Source: Syntrophales bacterium (lineage in GTDB: Bacteria; Desulfobacterota; Syntrophia; Syntrophales; UBA2192). From it: a stretch of DNA of 64,000 bases. The stretch is from assembly GCA_036725345.1 (NCBI GenBank), contig DAIMEJ010000004.1:63735-127734 (forward strand), read 5' to 3'. Positions 4,039 through 40,520 of this stretch are shown in pieces (position 1 is the stretch's first letter; the number at the start of each line of letters is the position of its first letter). Made by a program: the position numbers and the translations under genes. A model generated the notes under the pieces. It saw only the letters and a list, made by a program, of their open reading frames with translations, ran no database searches and was not told the origin of the DNA.

Positions 4039-4371
4039 ATGTTCGAAGTTACGGCAAAGGCGGAAGAGAAGTTCAACGAATTCTTCAAGTCGCGAACGGA
4101 AAAACCGTTTATCCGCATTTTTCTCCAGCAGGGGGGGTGATCCGGTCCCGCGCTCGGCATGGCTCTGGACGAGTCAAACGAAAGCGACGAGACCTTCAAG
4201 GTCAATGGCCTGACCTTCATGATCGAAAAGGAACTCTTTGAGATGGTGAAACCCCTCAAGATCGATTTCATGGAAACACCCCGGGGCGCCGGCTACATCA
4301 TCGAATCCAACCTGAAGGCGGCCGACGGCTGCGGCGGGTGCGCGGGGTCCTGCGGTTCATCCGAAGGGTGA
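4039..4371 (+). CDS. IscA/HesB-like Fe-S cluster protein, candidate selenoprotein (in-frame UGA at 4138-4140 read as Sec)
   Basis: The track gives only 4159..4371. An ATG at 4039 with SD AGGAGG 6-11 nt upstream opens the same frame: MFEVTAKAEEKFNEFFKSRTEKPFIRIFLQQGG-TGA-SGPALGMALDE... The TGA sits where IscA/HesB proteins have the Cys of the GGCSG motif. The C-terminal Cys cluster GCGGCAGSCG is retained. selB lies in the same window. Confidence 0.75.
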
Positions 4372-4404
4372 GGCGGCATTTCCGGCAGAAAACGTGAACA
4401 GCGC

Positions 4405-4434
4405 AAAAAAGGGGAACAGACGTTCCCCTTTTTT
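4405..4434. terminator. bidirectional rho-independent terminator between convergent genes
   Basis: AAAAAA-GGGGAAC-agac-GTTCCCC-TTTTTT. A perfect 7-bp stem flanked by an A-run and a T-run, between the HesB-like gene (+) and the ABC-F gene (-). Confidence 0.75.
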
Positions 4435-4474
4435 ATGTTTTCATTGCGGGCGATCCGCAACGGACATTCGCCCT

Positions 4475-6454
4475 TCATCCTTCTGTTTCAACCGCATCGA
4501 TCCGGTTTTGGATCTCCTCCCATTCGACGTAAAGGGTGTCGAGGCGGGCCGTCAGCTCCCGGTACTCGACAGCGGCCGCCCGTGTCTTTTTCTCGTCCTG
4601 GTAGATCTTCCCGTCAGCGAAAAGAGCCTCCATCTCTTTTTTCTTTGCCTCTCCTGCCCCGATTTCACGCTGGAGTCCCTCAAGTTCGTCCTTCAGGGGC
4701 TTCAGACGGTCGAAGCGCTCCTGCCTCTTCTTTGCCTCGTCTCGTTTGCGCATTCTTTCGAGGTGAAGGGGGGAGTGACCCTTAATCGCCTTGATCGCCC
4801 TGCCCGCCGTGTCCCGCCGTACGGTCTTATCGTCATCGGCGAGTCGGCTTTTTTCGAGATATTCGTCCACGGAACCGTAGGCAACCCGCAGCACGCCCTC
4901 TTCCATCTCCCAGACCATGCCCACCAGGCCGTCCAGAAAGTCCCGATCATGAGATACGATGATGTAGGCGCCGGGAAAGCTCTCCAGGGCCCTCTTGAGC
5001 ACCTCCTTGGACCGCAGATCCAGATGGTTGGTCGGCTCGTCGAAAAGAAGAAGATTGGCAGGCACCAGGAGCATCTTGGCCAGGGCAAGCCGGCTCTTCT
5101 CGCCGCCGGAAAGAACGGAAACGGGTTTGAAGACATCCTCGTCCCGGAAGAGAAAGGATCCGAGGAGGGTTCTCAGGCGGGTGTTCGTCTCCTTTGTCGC
5201 CACCTCTTCCAGGGTCTGGAGAACCGTCTTCGACGGGTCGAGCGCCTCCGCCTGGTTCTGCGCGTAGTAGGAAACCACGGCTTTGTATCCGGGCTCGCAC
5301 CGGCCCTCCTGGAAATCCTCCAGTCCTGCCATGATCCGGACGAGTGTGGATTTCCCCGACCCGTTCACCCCGAGCAGGGCGATCCGGTCGCTCCGCTGGA
5401 CGGAGATGGACAGATCACTGAAAACAGGCTGGCTCCCGTAATATTTGCCAAGCTCCCGGATTTCCATGACGACCCGGCTCGCCTGCGGCGGCTCCGGCAA
5501 ATCGAATGAGATGACGGCCTCTTCATTTTCCGGCTCGATCAATTCCATTTTCTCGAGCCGCCGGAGTCGGCTCTGGGCCTGCCGGGCCCTTGTTTTTTCG
5601 GCTCGATATCGCTCGACGAAACGCAGGGTCTGCCGGATTTCCTGCTGCTGGTTACGGTAGGCCGCTTCCCGGAGCGTCTTGCGCCGGCTCGCCTGTCCGA
5701 GATAGTCGGAGTAATTGCCGACATATTCCGAAACCGCACCCGCCGAGATTTCGAAGACACGGCCGACGAGATTATCGAGGAACCGCCTGTCATGGGACAC
5801 GAGGATAACCGCCCCGTCGTAAGACTGAAGATACGATTCAAGCCACTGGAGCGATTGGATATCCAGATGGTTGGTGGGTTCGTCGAGAAGAAGACAGGTG
5901 GGTTCTCTCAGGAGGAGTTTCGACAGCTCGATCCTCATCTGCCAGCCGCCGCTGAACTCCTCCGTCATCCGGCCGAACTCCGGTCCCCGGAAGCCCAGCC
6001 CGGACAGGACCTGCTTGATCTTCACATCGATGTCATATCCCTCCAGGTGCTCCACGTGATGCTGAATCTTCCCCAGTTCGGAGAGCAGTTCCTTCAACCC
6101 CGCGGGATCCGGATCACCCGCAACGGTCCGATCGGCGATTTCAACGCTCAGCCCCTCCATCTGCGCGTGGAGAGAAAGAATCTCGTCGAAGGCAAGCCTT
6201 ACTTCATCCAGGAGGGTGCGGCCCGTGTAACGGACCGCCTCCTGGGGAAGATAGCCCGTCGTGGCAGAGCGCGGCCGGTTGACCCGTCCGGTGTCGGCCT
6301 CGACGATCCCGGCGATGATCTTCATGAGTGTTGTCTTGCCCGCTCCGTTCGGACCCACGACGGCCACCTTTTCCCCTTCGTTGATGCGGATCGTGAGATC
6401 CCTGAACAGATACCGGCCGCCGTACTGCTTTGATATGCCCTGTAATGAAATCAT
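4475..6454 (-). CDS. ABC-F family ATPase (two NBDs, C-terminal coiled coil; Uup/YheS-like)
   Basis: 659 aa. Two Walker A motifs (GPNGAGKTT, GVNGSGKST), two LSGG signatures (FSGGWQMR, LSGGEKSR), Walker B LLLDEPTNHLD and LLFDEPTNHLD, no TM domain, charged C-terminal tail. Confidence 0.9.
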   Translation of the reverse strand: MISLQGISKQYGGRYLFRDLTIRINEGEKVAVVGPNGAGKTTLMKIIAGIVEADTGRVNRPRSATTGYLPQEAVRYTGRTLLDEVRLAFDEILSLHAQMEGLSVEIADRTVAGDPDPAGLKELLSELGKIQHHVEHLEGYDIDVKIKQVLSGLGFRGPEFGRMTEEFSGGWQMRIELSKLLLREPTCLLLDEPTNHLDIQSLQWLESYLQSYDGAVILVSHDRRFLDNLVGRVFEISAGAVSEYVGNYSDYLGQASRRKTLREAAYRNQQQEIRQTLRFVERYRAEKTRARQAQSRLRRLEKMELIEPENEEAVISFDLPEPPQASRVVMEIRELGKYYGSQPVFSDLSISVQRSDRIALLGVNGSGKSTLVRIMAGLEDFQEGRCEPGYKAVVSYYAQNQAEALDPSKTVLQTLEEVATKETNTRLRTLLGSFLFRDEDVFKPVSVLSGGEKSRLALAKMLLVPANLLLFDEPTNHLDLRSKEVLKRALESFPGAYIIVSHDRDFLDGLVGMVWEMEEGVLRVAYGSVDEYLEKSRLADDDKTVRRDTAGRAIKAIKGHSPLHLERMRKRDEAKKRQERFDRLKPLKDELEGLQREIGAGEAKKKEMEALFADGKIYQDEKKTRAAAVEYRELTARLDTLYVEWEEIQNRIDAVETEG

Positions 6455-7306: not shown

Positions 7307-8311
7307 ATGAATCCCGAAATCCTGCAGATGACAGAGAAGGGCCTCTATTGTGAGGTTGGGAATTTTTACATCGACCCGCTGCAGCCCGTCGACCGCGCCG
7401 TTATCACTCACGCCCACGGCGATCACGCAAGGCGGGAATGCCGGCGGTACCTGGCCGCTAGAGAAGGCCTTCAGATCCTGCGCCTCCGTTTGGGCAATGA
7501 GGCGTCCATCCAGACCGTTCCCTACGGTGAACACACTTACCTGGACGGCATCCGGGTTTCCCTCCACCCCGCCGGCCACATCCTCGGCTCGTCACAGGTC
7601 CGCATCGAATACCGGGGGCGCATCACCGTTGTCTCCGGGGACTACAAGGTTCAGACCGACCCGACCTGCGGACCCCTCGAGGTCCTGCGCTGCCACACCT
7701 TTACAACGGAGTCGACCTTCGGCCTGCCCGTTTACCGATGGCCCGAGCCGAAAGAGATCCTCGGGGACATCAATGCCTGGTGGTCGGCCAATCGGGCGGC
7801 GGGGCGGCCAAGCCTGCTTTACGCTTACGCGGCGGGCAAGGCGCAGCGGATCATCATGGGACTCGACATTTCTCTCGGGCCCGTCTTCACCCACCGATCC
7901 GTGGAGGAACTGAACCGCCGCTACCGGGCAAGCGGTGTCGCCCTGCCCGATACCATCTCTCTCGATTTCGCCGGTAAAAAACCGGACTTCAGCAGCGCGC
8001 TCATCGTCGCTCCGCCGCTCGTGCACGGAACGGAGTGGACCAAACCCTTCAGGGACTGTTCAACGGGCTTTGCCTCGGGGTGGATGCGGATACGCGGCTT
8101 GCGCCGTCGCCGGTCTGTTGATCGGGGATTCGTCCTCTCCGATCATGTCGACTGGCCGGGCCTGCTGTCGGTTATCTCGTCAACGGGGGCCGAAGAGATA
8201 CTCGTCTGCCACGGTTACACCGCCGTTGTTGTCCGGACGCTCAGGGAAATGGGGCTCGACGCGAAATCTCTCGACACGCCCTTTGCGGCCGACGAAAAGA
8301 GCGAGAACTGA
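7307..8311 (+). CDS. ligase-associated DNA damage response exonuclease (metallo-beta-lactamase fold)
   Basis: 334 aa. GLYCEVGNFYIDPLQPVDRAVITHAHGDHAR matches the N-terminal signature I recall for this family (HxHxDH). Sits directly upstream of an ATP-dependent DNA ligase. Confidence 0.8.
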   Translation: MNPEILQMTEKGLYCEVGNFYIDPLQPVDRAVITHAHGDHARRECRRYLAAREGLQILRLRLGNEASIQTVPYGEHTYLDGIRVSLHPAGHILGSSQVRIEYRGRITVVSGDYKVQTDPTCGPLEVLRCHTFTTESTFGLPVYRWPEPKEILGDINAWWSANRAAGRPSLLYAYAAGKAQRIIMGLDISLGPVFTHRSVEELNRRYRASGVALPDTISLDFAGKKPDFSSALIVAPPLVHGTEWTKPFRDCSTGFASGWMRIRGLRRRRSVDRGFVLSDHVDWPGLLSVISSTGAEEILVCHGYTAVVVRTLREMGLDAKSLDTPFAADEKSEN

Positions 8312-11760: not shown

Positions 11761-11998
11761 AGGGATCTGGTTTGCGGCGATGTCTGTCTCGCCGTCCAAA
11801 ATAAATCCGGGTCTACAGGCACTGCCACAAAACGCTTTTGACGGTCATGCAGGCCGCGAACAAGCCCGAAACAGCGGTCACCGACAGGATAAACGTTGCA
11901 CTCACGGGTATTTTATTGTGCCTGTTGATTTGAACGGCTTTCATCGTCATTTGTCCGGTTCGTCTCACCACTCGCCACTGCCCACTCACCACTGTCTC

Positions 11999-14803: not shown

Positions 14804-14818
14804 AAAAAAGTGACGAGT

Positions 14819-14914
14819 GGTTAGTGAAGAGTGGTGAGAAAGATTAATTAACTCAAAACTCAACACTCAAAATTCAAAACTGCCTTCCCGGAAGGCCTAG
14901 TCGCAGAGGCCCTC
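14819..14914. repeat. direct repeat copy 1 (96 bp)
   Basis: Matches 15024-15119 with 2 mismatches by hand alignment. Looser similarity extends ~10-17 bp further left. Confidence 0.9.
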
Positions 14915-15023
14915 ATCTTTCCAGGGCGTTCTGTCATGCCGCAGGCCGTTCTTCACAGGTGGGCCGTTCCCCCAGGCTGCCTAGAAATGCCCAGATGCAA
15001 GGCCCCCGTAACGAGTGAGTAGT

Positions 15024-15119
15024 GGTTAGTGAAGAGTGGTGAGAAAGATTAATTAATTCAAAACTCAACACTCAAAATTCAAAACTGCCTTCCCGGAAGG
15101 CCTAATCGCAGAGGCCCTC
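15024..15119. repeat. direct repeat copy 2 (96 bp), overlapping the 3' end and terminator of the TPR lipoprotein gene
   Basis: Same 96-bp unit as 14819-14914. Includes the last 5 codons plus stop (EGLCD*) of the 15102..16034 gene. Confidence 0.9.
15070..15101 (-). terminator. candidate intrinsic terminator of the TPR lipoprotein gene
   Basis: Minus strand GCCUUCCGGGAAGGC palindrome immediately after the stop codon, followed by AGUUUUGAAUUUUGAG. An identical copy lies at about 14865-14896. Confidence 0.55.
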
Positions 15120-19722: not shown

Positions 19723-20237
19723 CGCTGTCTCTTCTCCGTTTTTTTCTTCAGTTTGTTCCGCCTCACGTGCTCGACGAGCCCCCCCGACCTTATGAGCCTC
19801 CTCATGAAATCGGGAATCGGCTGCGCCGAAGCGGTCCCATGGCTCACCACATTCTCGATCTTTCCCGTCGAAAGATCCACCGAGATCTTCTCCCCCTCCC
19901 GGAACCGTTCCGCGGCCTCACCGGACTCCACGAGCGGCAGCCCGATATTGAAGGCACTGCGGTAGAATATTCTGGCAAAACTCCGGGCGATGACGGCGCG
20001 GATACCCGCCTCTCTCAGCGCAAGGGGGGCGTGCTCGCGCGAGGATCCGCAGCCGAAGTTTCTTCCCGCTACGATAATGTCGCCCACCGCGACGGCCCCC
20101 GCAAAATCAGGCCTTATATCGGCAAAGACATGCTTCGCCAGCTCCGCGCCGTCCGAGGTGTTGCAATAGCGTGCGGGGATGATGAGATCCGTATCCACAT
20201 CATCTCCGAACTTCCACACCCTGCCTCTAATAAGCAT
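19719..20237 (-). CDS. leuD: 3-isopropylmalate (or citramalate) dehydratase small subunit
   Basis: Family-like start MLIRGRVWKFGDDVDTDLIIPARY at ATG 20237, with GGGGA 5 nt upstream. GRNFGCGSSREHAP motif. Confidence 0.85.
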   Translation of the reverse strand: MLIRGRVWKFGDDVDTDLIIPARYCNTSDGAELAKHVFADIRPDFAGAVAVGDIIVAGRNFGCGSSREHAPLALREAGIRAVIARSFARIFYRSAFNIGLPLVESGEAAERFREGEKISVDLSTGKIENVVSHGTASAQPIPDFMRRLIRSGGLVEHVRRNKLKKKTEKRQR

Positions 20238-20290
20238 CTTCGTCCCCACTTTCATTACATTCACGACTGTCCGGCACGCCCGCCATGCCG

Positions 20291-20368
20291 AAAAAAACTG
20301 GAATGTTGGAATAATGGGTTCTTTTAACCCCTTCCTTCCATCGCTCCACTATTCCATTATTCCATTCC
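20291..20368 (-). promoter_or_regulatory. structured RNA / terminator-like element between leuC and leuD
   Basis: Minus strand, directly after the leuC stop: GGAAUGGAAUAAUGG ...33 nt... CCAUUAUUCCAACAUUCC (15 bp with a 3-nt bulge), then AG + U7. Confidence 0.5.
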
Positions 20369-23237: not shown

Positions 23238-23260
23238 GATGTTCATTCCCCCATAAATTG

Positions 23261-23294
23261 AAAATCCGTTACCGGGTGACCGGATAACGGATTT
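23261..23294 (-). terminator. attenuator terminator in the cimA leader
   Basis: Minus strand AAAUCCGUUAUCCGG-ucac-CCGGUAACGGAUUU (14 bp, one bulged U) followed by UCAAUUU, ending about 10 nt before the cimA RBS. Confidence 0.7.
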
Positions 23295-23342
23295 CTCAGC
23301 AGGTTTATGTCCTCTCCATTATTCCATCATCGGTCCCCTACG

Positions 23343-23411
23343 TCATCCAGACGTATCCTGTATGACGATAATAATGATGGGCCGAATGATGAGAATAATG
23401 TCCCGATACAT
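23343..23411 (-). CDS. Ile-rich leader peptide (22 aa) of the cimA-leuCDB operon
   Basis: Hand translation: ATG TAT CGG GAC ATT ATT CTC ATC ATT CGG CCC ATC ATT ATT ATC GTC ATA CAG GAT ACG TCT GGA TGA = MYRDIILIIRPIIIIVIQDTSG (9 Ile). Too short for the ORF track. Confidence 0.6.
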   Translation of the reverse strand: MYRDIILIIRPIIIIVIQDTSG

Positions 23412-23972: not shown

Positions 23973-25625
23973 TCAAGTCCCGATACGGCCTGCATGCTCC
24001 CGCATACGCCGGCTCCGCGCGCGGCCCACGGCCAGAGAGACGACACCGAAAAACCCCAGCGCCATGGATAATTCCACGCCCAGGTGAAGCGCCACGAAAG
24101 CGAAGCCTATCAGGGGCAGCAGAGAAAGCCTGACAGCCGCCTTCAAGGCTTCTTGACCGGAAATGAAACGGGCAACGGGAGGCGAGAGATCTTCGTAGAG
24201 TCGCACCATGAAGTTCCCCGCTGCATGACCGCGAAGATACTCGTCCCTGAAATCCCTCAGGATCTGCACGTGTGGCTCCATCGGTGAGCCGAAGGCCGCC
24301 GTTGCGATGAAGCACCCGCCGCCTCCGCCGCCGCTGCTGCCTGGCTTAGACACGGGCGGGGTTTCAGCGCTTTGCGTGATGGTATAATCTGACCCCGCTA
24401 TGGCAAGAGAGCCTATCCTTGTCGACGCAGTTGTATTTGCTGATACACTGTAGCTTATCTGTCCGTTCCCAGTGCCACTCGATCCGGAGGTCAGTGTAAT
24501 CCAGTCGTCATTGCTGGTGGCGGTCCATTTGCAGTCAGCGCCGCAATTCAAAATGGCTGATCCTTCTGAGGCATTTGCCGAAACGGAAGCACCCGTGGAC
24601 TGCAGGGCATATGAGCATGTGCCAGCGAAAGACACCCCGAGCGTCTGGAATTTTCTTGCGGTCGTGATTGGCAGCATGGAGCAACCATAGTTCATCCGCA
24701 TCTTCATTCGAAATAACCCATTCGGACGATCTCCCCCCGACGTTCCCCAACTGTTCAAAACGATCCAGTAATGGTTGGCAGGATCGGCATCATCGTCGTT
24801 ATAACCGATAATGATGACCGCGTGACCCCCTCCCTCCGAAACATCATAACTCGTTCCGCAATAGGTATCGGGATTCCAGGTTGCTGTTTCCGTCTGATGG
24901 TCCCAGAAATCGTAGAATTCATTCCACGCAGCCTGATTGGGGAGATAATACGAAAACCAAACCCCCTTACCCTGGTTGAGAATTGATTTGATGTTGAGAA
25001 TCGCGTCGTCCTGGCCGACGCCAGTCGTCTCTATCGTCTGAACCACCAGGTCCGAAGAAAAGGGGTAATTCGTGGGGTACCAGGAGACGGAGCCACAGGC
25101 GCTGTCGCACGTCCCTTCGCCGTCGACGTACGCTGCCCCCGGATTGGTCCAGGGCACCGCGAAACCCCGGCTGTTATAGAAATCGACAAACATTGTGAGG
25201 TTACCGCCCTCGCATGCGCAGTCACCCGTCTTACAGGCATCGAGGAACTGGACGGAAAGGCGATCCTTGATCGCAAGCTGTGACTGGAGTGCGAGTTCCA
25301 GAACACCCGTCCCCGCCCAGGCCCAGCAGTTACCGCATTGCCCCTGGTTTCTCTGGGCAGGAACATATTGAATATTATCCAGGAGACTGAGAGACGAACC
25401 GACCTGCTGGTCTGCCGCTATCACAAGCCCGGACCGCACCCAGATGTCGATTTGCGCCCTCACAGCATTCTCGTAGTCTCTCTCCCAACGGTTCAGGGTC
25501 AGCGCATCCGGGCGCATCAAGGCGGGCCGGGATTTAGGCATCTCCTGGGAGAACGCGCCGGACGGAGAGCCTGCGATCAAGACAAAGGCGAGAAGGAGGG
25601 CGGCGGCAATCCTCGTTTTCTTCAT
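23973..25625 (-). CDS. secreted papain-family (C1) cysteine peptidase with Ig/BACON-like domain and C-terminal membrane-anchor region
   Basis: 550 aa. Signal peptide. Catalytic Cys in [10 protein letters not shown], His in [11 protein letters not shown], Asn/Trp in LNSWG. Then a beta-rich domain ([13 protein letters not shown]...[12 protein letters not shown]), a Gly run, a [11 protein letters not shown] motif and a hydrophobic tail. Confidence 0.8.
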
Positions 25626-40481: not shown

Positions 40482-40520
40482 GGAATAATGGGGTACTGGG
40501 ATTATGTCATCATTCCCGCG

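Follow-up and report, generated by a model that had tools for sequence, protein, structure and literature searches.

In the genome of Geobacter metallireducens, sites composed of three to five hepta- or octanucleotide repeats in tandem are found in pairs on opposite strands; there are tens of such paired sites, one example lying between proB and proA (Aklujkar et al. 2009, PMC2700814). The units of Gmet_I classes 1 to 3 read GTTGCTYN, TCTCCGTS and MTYCTGA, and the sites, at a fixed distance from which insertion sequence (IS) elements have inserted, were proposed, but never tested, as binding sites of an IHF/HU-type regulator (PMC2700814). In G. bemidjiensis, multicopy sequences are present in 12% of the intergenic regions (PMC2996986). 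Meanwhile, the short tandemly repeated repetitive (STRR) sequences of cyanobacteria form tandem-heptamer hairpins between hupS and hupL, for which a role in transcript stability or translational coupling has been proposed (PMC2670836). Here, an element of comparable architecture is described, which lies between leuC and leuD in a 64,000-nt stretch of the Syntrophales contig DAIMEJ010000004.1 (hereafter the window, i.e. the whole stretch that was analysed, numbered from its first letter). This hairpin (20298-20368, minus strand) probably belongs to a dispersed family of short palindromic repeats, as a copy that has decayed and was inherited vertically; the family is referred to below as the TGGAAT family. 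The architecture of the family has precedents in Geobacter and in the cyanobacterial STRR sequences, cases which were noted but never explained.

Like the Geobacter sites, the elements of the TGGAAT family consist of tandem units (7-9 nt long and three to five per site in Geobacter) which pair across opposite strands around a variable spacer, and they are intergenic, also between two genes of one pathway, and lineage-specific, with tens of copies per genome in the case of Geobacter. The unit (WTGGAATR) and the hosts (Syntrophales and other Thermodesulfobacteriota) are different, however, and proximity to stop codons, a habit of the TGGAAT family, is not reported for the Geobacter sites. With the STRR elements the family shares a hairpin made of short tandem repeats, a position between two subunit genes of one enzyme and an occurrence in several species, whereas the STRR period (7 bp), unit sequences and phylum are different and no homology is implied. 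The repetitive extragenic palindromic (REP) sequences and bacterial interspersed mosaic elements (BIMEs) of enterobacteria offer a further parallel, being short, imperfect, transcribed extragenic palindromes which are dispersed as many copies and often intercistronic near the upstream stop codon; the window element is likewise an imperfect extragenic palindrome and, to judge from the operon layout only, is transcribed with its flanking genes. A REP, however, is a single stem of ~35 nt with a GTAG-type head and a link to RAYT transposases, whereas the TGGAAT arms are octamer arrays of ~32 nt, and a GTAG/CGTC-type head is absent from the unit logo of the family. According to PMC12306157, which summarises Liang et al. 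[quoted passage not shown] By analogy, the leuC-leuD element is likened here to a REP- or STRR-type dispersed repeat, and its effects are likely to be generic ones at the level of mRNA.

The TGGAAT repeat family

A scan of metagenomes for the two arms (TGGAATAATGG, a gap of 12-42 nt, then TATTCCAAC) yielded at least 120 loci. In most of the loci listed the flanks, which are not forced by this pattern, run on as arrays with a period of 8 nt, in the order (..TGGAAT)n, GGG..loop..CCC, (ATTCCA..)n. Among the matches listed, an array detector recognised 82 such elements, to which the following description applies. The unit logo reads W-T-G-G-A-A-T-R in the 5' arm and, inverted, Y-ATTCCA-W in the 3' arm. 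Its TGGAAT hexamer is ~95-99% invariant; the variable parts are the two spacer bases and the loop. An arm most often has four units, the median element length is 82 nt, and the GC content of the host loci ranges from 33 to 64%. As a negative control, the same arm pattern was applied to 2.9 million viral contigs, where it found 9 matches, all of them in AT-rich coding sequence without arrays.

The input to a covariance model, R1, consisted solely of 16 metagenomic elements, without the window sequence. The model scores the window element with 42.1 bits (E = 3.6e-9) on both strands, aligned to positions 20365-20290, and over the 64-kb window nothing else is significant (the next match has E = 0.24). 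Of the first 100 loci among those listed, 87 are matched with E below 1e-3. The earlier note on this DNA had preferred a terminator-like element and named a dispersed repeat as an alternative; it is the alternative that the scan and the model bear out. R1 also finds the homologous element of lineages L092/L093 (30 bits), a TGGAGU-variant element 3' of leuD in a metagenome-assembled genome (MAG) of the Desulfatiglandales (L012) and a GAAGUUU-heptamer variant 5' of leuC in a genome of the Desulfococcaceae (L043), while the hosts of three named protein clusters are Desulfobacterales, Syntrophaceae or Thermodesulfobacteriota and the fourth cluster has a partial 'Planctomycetaceae' entry only. Contigs other than that of the window carry two or three family copies within 10-13 kb, with up to three within 13 kb in L175 and L101. 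Copies on one and the same contig have wholly different loops, and the number of units varies between orthologous loci, as in L125 compared with L146 or in the window compared with L092. At the variable unit positions, 81% of the cells are paired arm to arm vs 83.5% in shuffles, which is a weak test, since parts of two units were already set by the pattern used in the search.

The window copy shows the build of the family: in its 5' arm, 8-nt units around a TGGAAT core follow one another in tandem, its 3' arm consists of inverted ATTCCA units with the same period, and it lies between co-directional genes, 0 nt after the leuC stop codon. Among the 47 elements with both neighbours called, 39 have co-directional, 2 convergent and 6 divergent neighbours. 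The gap from the upstream stop codon to the element has a median of 8 nt and is at most 15 nt in 24 of 39 cases, the median gap from the end of the element to the start of the next open reading frame (ORF) is 31 nt, and in 29 of 39 cases the distance of the element to the stop is shorter than that to the following start (P = 0.003). The earlier note had considered a hairpin between two subunit genes unexpected, yet for this family such a place is habitual: on contig L162, elements are found between the genes of the ATP synthase alpha and gamma (atpA-atpG) and beta and epsilon (atpD-atpC) subunits; of the other members, one lies 3' of a NuoF-like gene (Complex1_51K domain) and one between EtfA and acyl-CoA dehydrogenase genes, and HdrA-like genes, an aminotransferase gene and genes of short-chain dehydrogenases are further neighbours. 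The neighbour genes of the listed family members are unrelated to branched-chain amino acids. The supposed link of the motif with leu/ilv genes is therefore not sustained, because the search for the inverted pair shows a common intergenic repeat in unrelated operons.

The two L162 elements (5024-5101 and 7467-7562) come after alpha and beta, which have 3 copies per complex, and before gamma and epsilon, which have 1; this arrangement, of which there are two cases only, would fit an effect that raises upstream over downstream expression.

On the sense strand of the family no enrichment of downstream T-runs is found (10 of 38 elements, vs 8 of 38 for upstream A-runs). Folding energies show no strand asymmetry either, the sense strand being the better one in 22 of 39 (22 vs 17, P = 0.43), a result which is uninformative on selection at the RNA level; G-U pairs number 100 on the sense and 89 on the antisense strand. 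A blastn search of the consensus element against plasmids and phages gave no match, to which the low-complexity filter may have contributed. A literature search for the octamer strings returned only unrelated primer sequences and no published name of the family.

Structure of the leuC-leuD spacer

The NCBIfam models confirm the gene calls leuC, leuD, leuB and cimA, with leuC assigned to TIGR02083 (636 bits) and leuD to TIGR02087/TIGR02084. The spacer between leuC and leuD is 131 nt long, ~35 nt of which follow the second hairpin. The coordinates of its features are collected in Table 1, together with those of the cimA leader.

Table 1. Positions of the features of the leuC-leuD spacer and of the cimA leader within the window.
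Feature	Position	Strand	Remarks
leuC stop codon TGA	20371-20369	minus	read directly; the element begins at the very next base
5' arm segment GGAAUGGAAUAAUGG	20368-20354	minus	read directly, right after the leuC TGA
5' arm, decayed tandem array GGAAU / GGAAUAAU / GGAAUAGU / GGAGCGAU / GGAAGGAA	20332..20368	minus	sequence and covariance model R1
Central core, small hairpin GGGGUU-AAAAG-AACCC	20316..20331	minus	GGG..loop..CCC centre typical of the family
3' arm segment CCAUUAUUCCAACAUUCC	20317-20300	minus	read directly, followed by AG
3' arm, two inverted units AUUAUUCC / AACAUUCC, then AG	20298..20315	minus	sequence reading; three units in the L092 homologue
U7 run 3' of the hairpin	20297-20291	minus	outside the repeat family; not conserved
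Second hairpin CGGCAUG-gcggg-CGUGCCG	20290-20272	minus	GC-rich; in the spacer, outside the repeat; -13.5 kcal/mol, z = -2.9
leuD 5' untranslated stretch	20235..20271	minus	Shine-Dalgarno-like GGGGA 20247-20243; ATG 20237-20235
Leader peptide MYRDIILIIRPIIIIVIQDTSG	23411-23343	minus	upstream of cimA
Exact 13-mer AUGGAAUAAUGGA	23327-23315	minus	segment 2 of the cimA leader; judged not to be part of the element

As the earlier note had it, the arms of the hairpin pair over 15 bp with a 3-nt bulge, namely as 10 + 5 bp with AAC bulged out between them, and the second hairpin is present at the place described. The interior between the arms, however, is 36 nt rather than 33 nt long. The small GGGUU/AACCC hairpin inside it does exist, but its last two C also belong to the 3' arm, and hence the two pairings cannot both be complete at the same time. 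The 5' arm is built of 8-nt units with a (U)GGAAU core, two of which have decayed. Because this arm is a tandem repeat, a second pairing register is possible, and it is this register, in which GGAAUAGUGG pairs with CCAUUAUUCC and UGGAAU with AUUCCA, that constitutes the minimum-free-energy fold. The folding energy calculation that had been suggested gives -19.7 kcal/mol for the hairpin alone (z = -3.5), with none of 200 shuffles folding as well; the whole spacer folds at -36.9 kcal/mol (z = -2.7).

The ORFs in the spacer are AUG-GAA-UAA, AUG-GAA-UAG and one of 5 codons, none of which is a leader ORF, and no promoter-like site was found between leuC and leuD. Within the 64-kb window the element has no second copy; the parts of it that recur are limited to the 13-mer of the cimA leader and an 11-mer at 40482. 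With one mismatch allowed at most, GGAATAATGG is encountered 5 times in the window vs 3.3 expected. Rfam has no match at the gathering threshold in the window, and lax Rfam searches with the spacer, the spacers of relatives and 16 family loci returned only sub-threshold chance matches to eukaryotic miRNA-like hairpins.

The spacer in relatives and the cimA leader

The exact LeuC protein is present on metagenome contigs from anaerobic digesters, and the nearest named relatives are MAGs of Syntrophales/Syntrophaceae, the best LeuC match in the genome collection being 73%. Where LeuC is 72-78% identical (L007-L009, L094, L096), the leuC-leuD spacers measure 30-70 nt and lack a hairpin. All six lineages with 88-92% identical LeuC, on the other hand, have a long hairpin in the spacer, which is represented by three unrelated sequences: the GGAAU element, common to the window and L092/L093 (90% identical LeuC) and located in the same place; a palindrome of ~125 nt in L087/L088, L089 and L091; and a palindrome of ~190 nt in L090. 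All three types start 0-7 nt past the leuC stop.

The homologue in L092/L093 retains GAAUGGAAUAAUGG, the small GGGUU..ACCC core (GGGUUU-AAAA-AGACCC in L092) and UAUUCCAACAUUCCAG; inheritance of the window element goes back at least to the time when its lineage and that of L092 separated. The homologue is without ~23 nt of the window's 5' arm, and its 3' arm contains one additional CAUUCCAG unit. After the hairpin L092/L093 read GUUUUCCCG, where UUUUCCC, that is four U followed by CCC, stands in place of U7, and hence the U7 run is not conserved. In the second hairpin of L092 the 3' half and the loop are conserved, and the 5' half has changed without compensation. The GAAAGUG(G/A)GG ahead of leuD is conserved in L092.

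Also 3' of the repeat, the window and L092 have the 19-nt block AUGGCGGnCGUGCCGGACA (20268-20286, minus strand) in common, apart from a single change. Because the changes in the 5' half of the second hairpin are uncompensated, it may be the sequence rather than the hairpin that is kept at this block.

The spacers of the window and L092 are 85% identical, and the four-fold sites of leuC 63%. Purifying selection on the spacer, considered on the basis of these two figures, was dropped: gap-optimised shuffled spacers reach ~71% (maximum 83%) and the leuB-mlaE spacer 79%, so that the 85% figure shows homology, not proven constraint.

As to the other two palindromes, the ~125-nt one (4261-4390 in L087, 4261-4389 in L089, 2615-2742 in L091) is 94-95% identical among its three lineages (blastn), in which the four-fold sites of leuC are 65-68% identical, and it shows one compensatory change, from CGUCC/GGACG to CAUCC/GGAUG. 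The ~190-nt palindrome of L090 occupies 4255-4445.

Upstream of cimA, a classical isoleucine attenuator is found (23255-23411, minus strand), which comprises a leader peptide, a 1:2 stem that uses the Ile codons and a terminator (AAAUCCGUUAUCCGG..CCGGUAACGGAUUUU). The leader segment GAUGAUGGAAUAAUGGA pairs with the Ile codons GACAUUAUUCUCAUCAUU (AUU/AUC), and the leader's GGAAUAAUGG is complementary to these Ile codons, which belong to the leader peptide. The attenuator is conserved in all close relatives; its segment (G/A)AUGGAAUAAUG(G/C)AGAGGAC is kept in L087, L089, L090 and L093, regardless of which element the spacer contains. The motif that the earlier note saw shared between this leader and the spacer is indeed there, as the exact 13-mer of Table 1 (blastn-short E = 0.098 against the whole window), but the relatedness drawn from it is not supported. 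Since the leader motif is dictated by the Ile codons, the identity is best read as a coincidence, the more likely so because the 13-mer is no more than a pair of the consensus units of which a widespread repeat is built.

Upstream of the cimA leader, a 550-aa ORF (23973-25625, minus strand) encodes a CFI-box-CTERM domain (NF041770); the versions of this ORF in relatives have peptidase C1 and BACON domains.

Inverted arrays occur in other leu-operon spacers of Thermodesulfobacteriota as well, with units CGCTATG (x4), GAAGTTT (x5), CGCAAAG, CCTAGTG (x4), CACGAA and GGAATTnn (x6), located in L012 (6255-6378, 6947-7025), in L043 (1782-1865) and in the leuC-leuD spacers of L017, L064, L068 and L011; the architecture of these arrays is common, and the unit sequence is lineage-specific. 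The window itself contains another short-tandem-repeat family: two 106-nt copies (14809-14914 and 15014-15119, plus strand; 96% identical), each of which starts with four AGTGnnn heptamers and continues with CTCAAAA-type heptamers, with a partial inverted copy 3 kb away (11963-11993). In addition, six of the pattern matches (L106, L107 at 1372-1572, L112, L170, L207, L215) represent a different, conserved nested hairpin, GCUCGAAAACCCCCG..UUGGAAUAAUGGAGG..CUUCACUAUUCCAAC..CGGAGGCUUUCGAG, which follows a TGATATAT box and precedes an ORF reading ..NKLRQRKRRILRRIENRP. This hairpin has no Rfam match and may be the 5' leader of an IS transposase.

Competing explanations and significance

A decayed and vertically inherited repeat copy accounts for the 20298-20368 hairpin in the following way. 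The numbers of units would drift by slippage, and such drift in a tandem array would explain why the window has additional 5' units, why L092 has one more 3' unit and why pairing is possible in two registers. For effects at the RNA level, as for the mode by which the family spreads, we infer rather than observe. The operon layout suggests that the element is transcribed inside the cimA-leuC-leuD-leuB mRNA, where the long imperfect hairpin abutting the leuC stop may, by analogy, block 3'-to-5' exonucleases and so stabilise the cimA-leuC part of the transcript. The translation of leuD would start from its own Shine-Dalgarno sequence ~50 nt downstream, and at most a weak polarity on leuD-leuB may result, with the chance U7 helping in this genome. 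The element would neither sense isoleucine or leucine nor be functionally linked to the cimA attenuator.

The terminator-like regulatory reading proposed in the earlier note is not supported. An intrinsic terminator or attenuator within the operon, in which the hairpin and U7 would stop some transcripts after leuC and thereby set the ratio of cimA-leuC to leuD-leuB, is unlikely. The element does resemble an intrinsic terminator in that a hairpin of -19.7 kcal/mol is followed on the transcribed strand by AG and seven U, and since the spacer has no promoter-like site to restart transcription, any termination would be felt by leuD and leuB; the position of the L162 elements, after three-copy and before one-copy ATP synthase subunits, also fits a higher expression upstream than downstream. 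However, the fold has a 28-nt loop at minimum free energy or a large bulge, and an AU-rich stem base, whereas the operon's own terminators are compact and GC-rich, and a terminator scan did not list the window hairpin. The replacement of U7 by U4CCC in L092/L093 and the lack of a downstream T-run excess in the family speak against this reading, as does the fact that LeuC and LeuD are required 1:1. As regards a ribosome-mediated attenuator, the spacer has no leader ORF, the Ile leader being the one upstream of cimA. The same lack weakens the proposal that the spacer harbours an RNA element akin to the cimA attenuator, or under common regulation with it, by virtue of the UGGAAUAAUGGA core, either as a duplicated 1:2 stem or as a long-range partner. 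The exact 13-mer at two sites of one operon and the resemblance of the spacer's 3' arm to the leader's Ile-codon stretch would agree with it, but the leader's motif is set by AUU/AUC pairing and is kept in relatives with entirely different spacer elements, and the 13-mer corresponds to two consensus units found at many unrelated loci; this proposal is very improbable and close to refuted. Slighter still are the prospects of a chance hairpin in a fast-evolving spacer, outside any family. It would accord with the lack of over-representation of GGAATAATGG in the window, yet it is contradicted by the homologue in L092/L093 and by the shuffles, and is refuted by the R1 match of the window element together with the 87 matches among 100 listed loci.

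A further, unlikely explanation is that a sequence-specific factor binds to the TGGAAT units and the hairpin is a by-product of their inverted arrangement, the candidates being an RNA-binding protein at intercistronic junctions, a ribbon-helix-helix or IHF/HU DNA-binding protein, or a mobilising enzyme. A hexamer that stays nearly invariant over hosts of 33-64% GC while two spacer bases and the loop vary, loops that differ among copies on one contig, and the recurrence of the architecture with other units in other lineages all agree with this explanation, as does the lack of arm-to-arm covariation at the spacer bases, although the search pattern confounds the latter test. By analogy, the Geobacter arrays proposed as sites of a global regulator, with IS elements at a fixed distance, could be cited in its favour. 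On the other hand, no candidate protein was identified, operators are not usually located immediately behind stop codons within an operon, and the strand asymmetry that would indicate reading at the RNA level is absent. Somewhat more broadly, the tandem UGGAAU/TGGAAT arrays are conceivable, with low probability, as recognition sites of a sequence-specific factor conserved in Thermodesulfobacteriota and acting behind the stop codons of core operons (atp, nuo-like, etf, leu). Candidates for such a factor would be an RNA-binding protein whose contacts recur every 8 nt and which sets the expression ratios of the adjoining cistrons, or a mobilising enzyme that targets stop-codon-proximal sites.

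Several observations weigh against a mere decayed repeat copy. All six close relatives keep a long hairpin in the spacer in the form of three unrelated sequences, and a hairpin at the leuC-leuD junction could therefore be selected rather than merely tolerated. The near-invariant TGGAAT, combined with free, non-covarying spacer bases, points to a sequence-specific factor. With 42 bits, against 50-90 for typical members, the window copy is among the low scorers of the family, which is consistent with a decayed copy, and it is the only one in the 64-kb window, a count that covers the window and not the rest of the source genome. As regards miniature inverted-repeat transposable elements, the arms are inverted arrays and the loops of copies on the same contig are entirely different; neither target-site duplications, in a comparison made without an empty site, nor an associated transposase were seen. 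Stabilisation, ribosome stalling and polarity, moreover, are analogies only. The near-invariant hexamer, the proximity to stop codons and the turnover of three palindromes at one junction leave room for a sequence-specific factor, or for a hairpin being selected at this site.

For the locus, a decayed copy of a dispersed repeat does away with a tempting but wrong reading, in which a further point of control, responsive to amino acids, is tied to the Ile attenuator, and the only specific regulator seen in the cimA-leuCDB operon is the Ile-rich leader upstream of cimA. More generally, a widespread, sequence-defined repeat family is documented in uncultured Thermodesulfobacteriota, where it lies behind stop codons in housekeeping operons and keeps its hexamer almost invariant while the rest drifts. 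If the units are indeed the sites of a factor, the three unrelated leuC-leuD palindromes would reflect selection for a hairpin at the junction. Annotators gain a recognisable class of elements to mask, and experimenters an RNA or DNA bait for the factor, if one exists.

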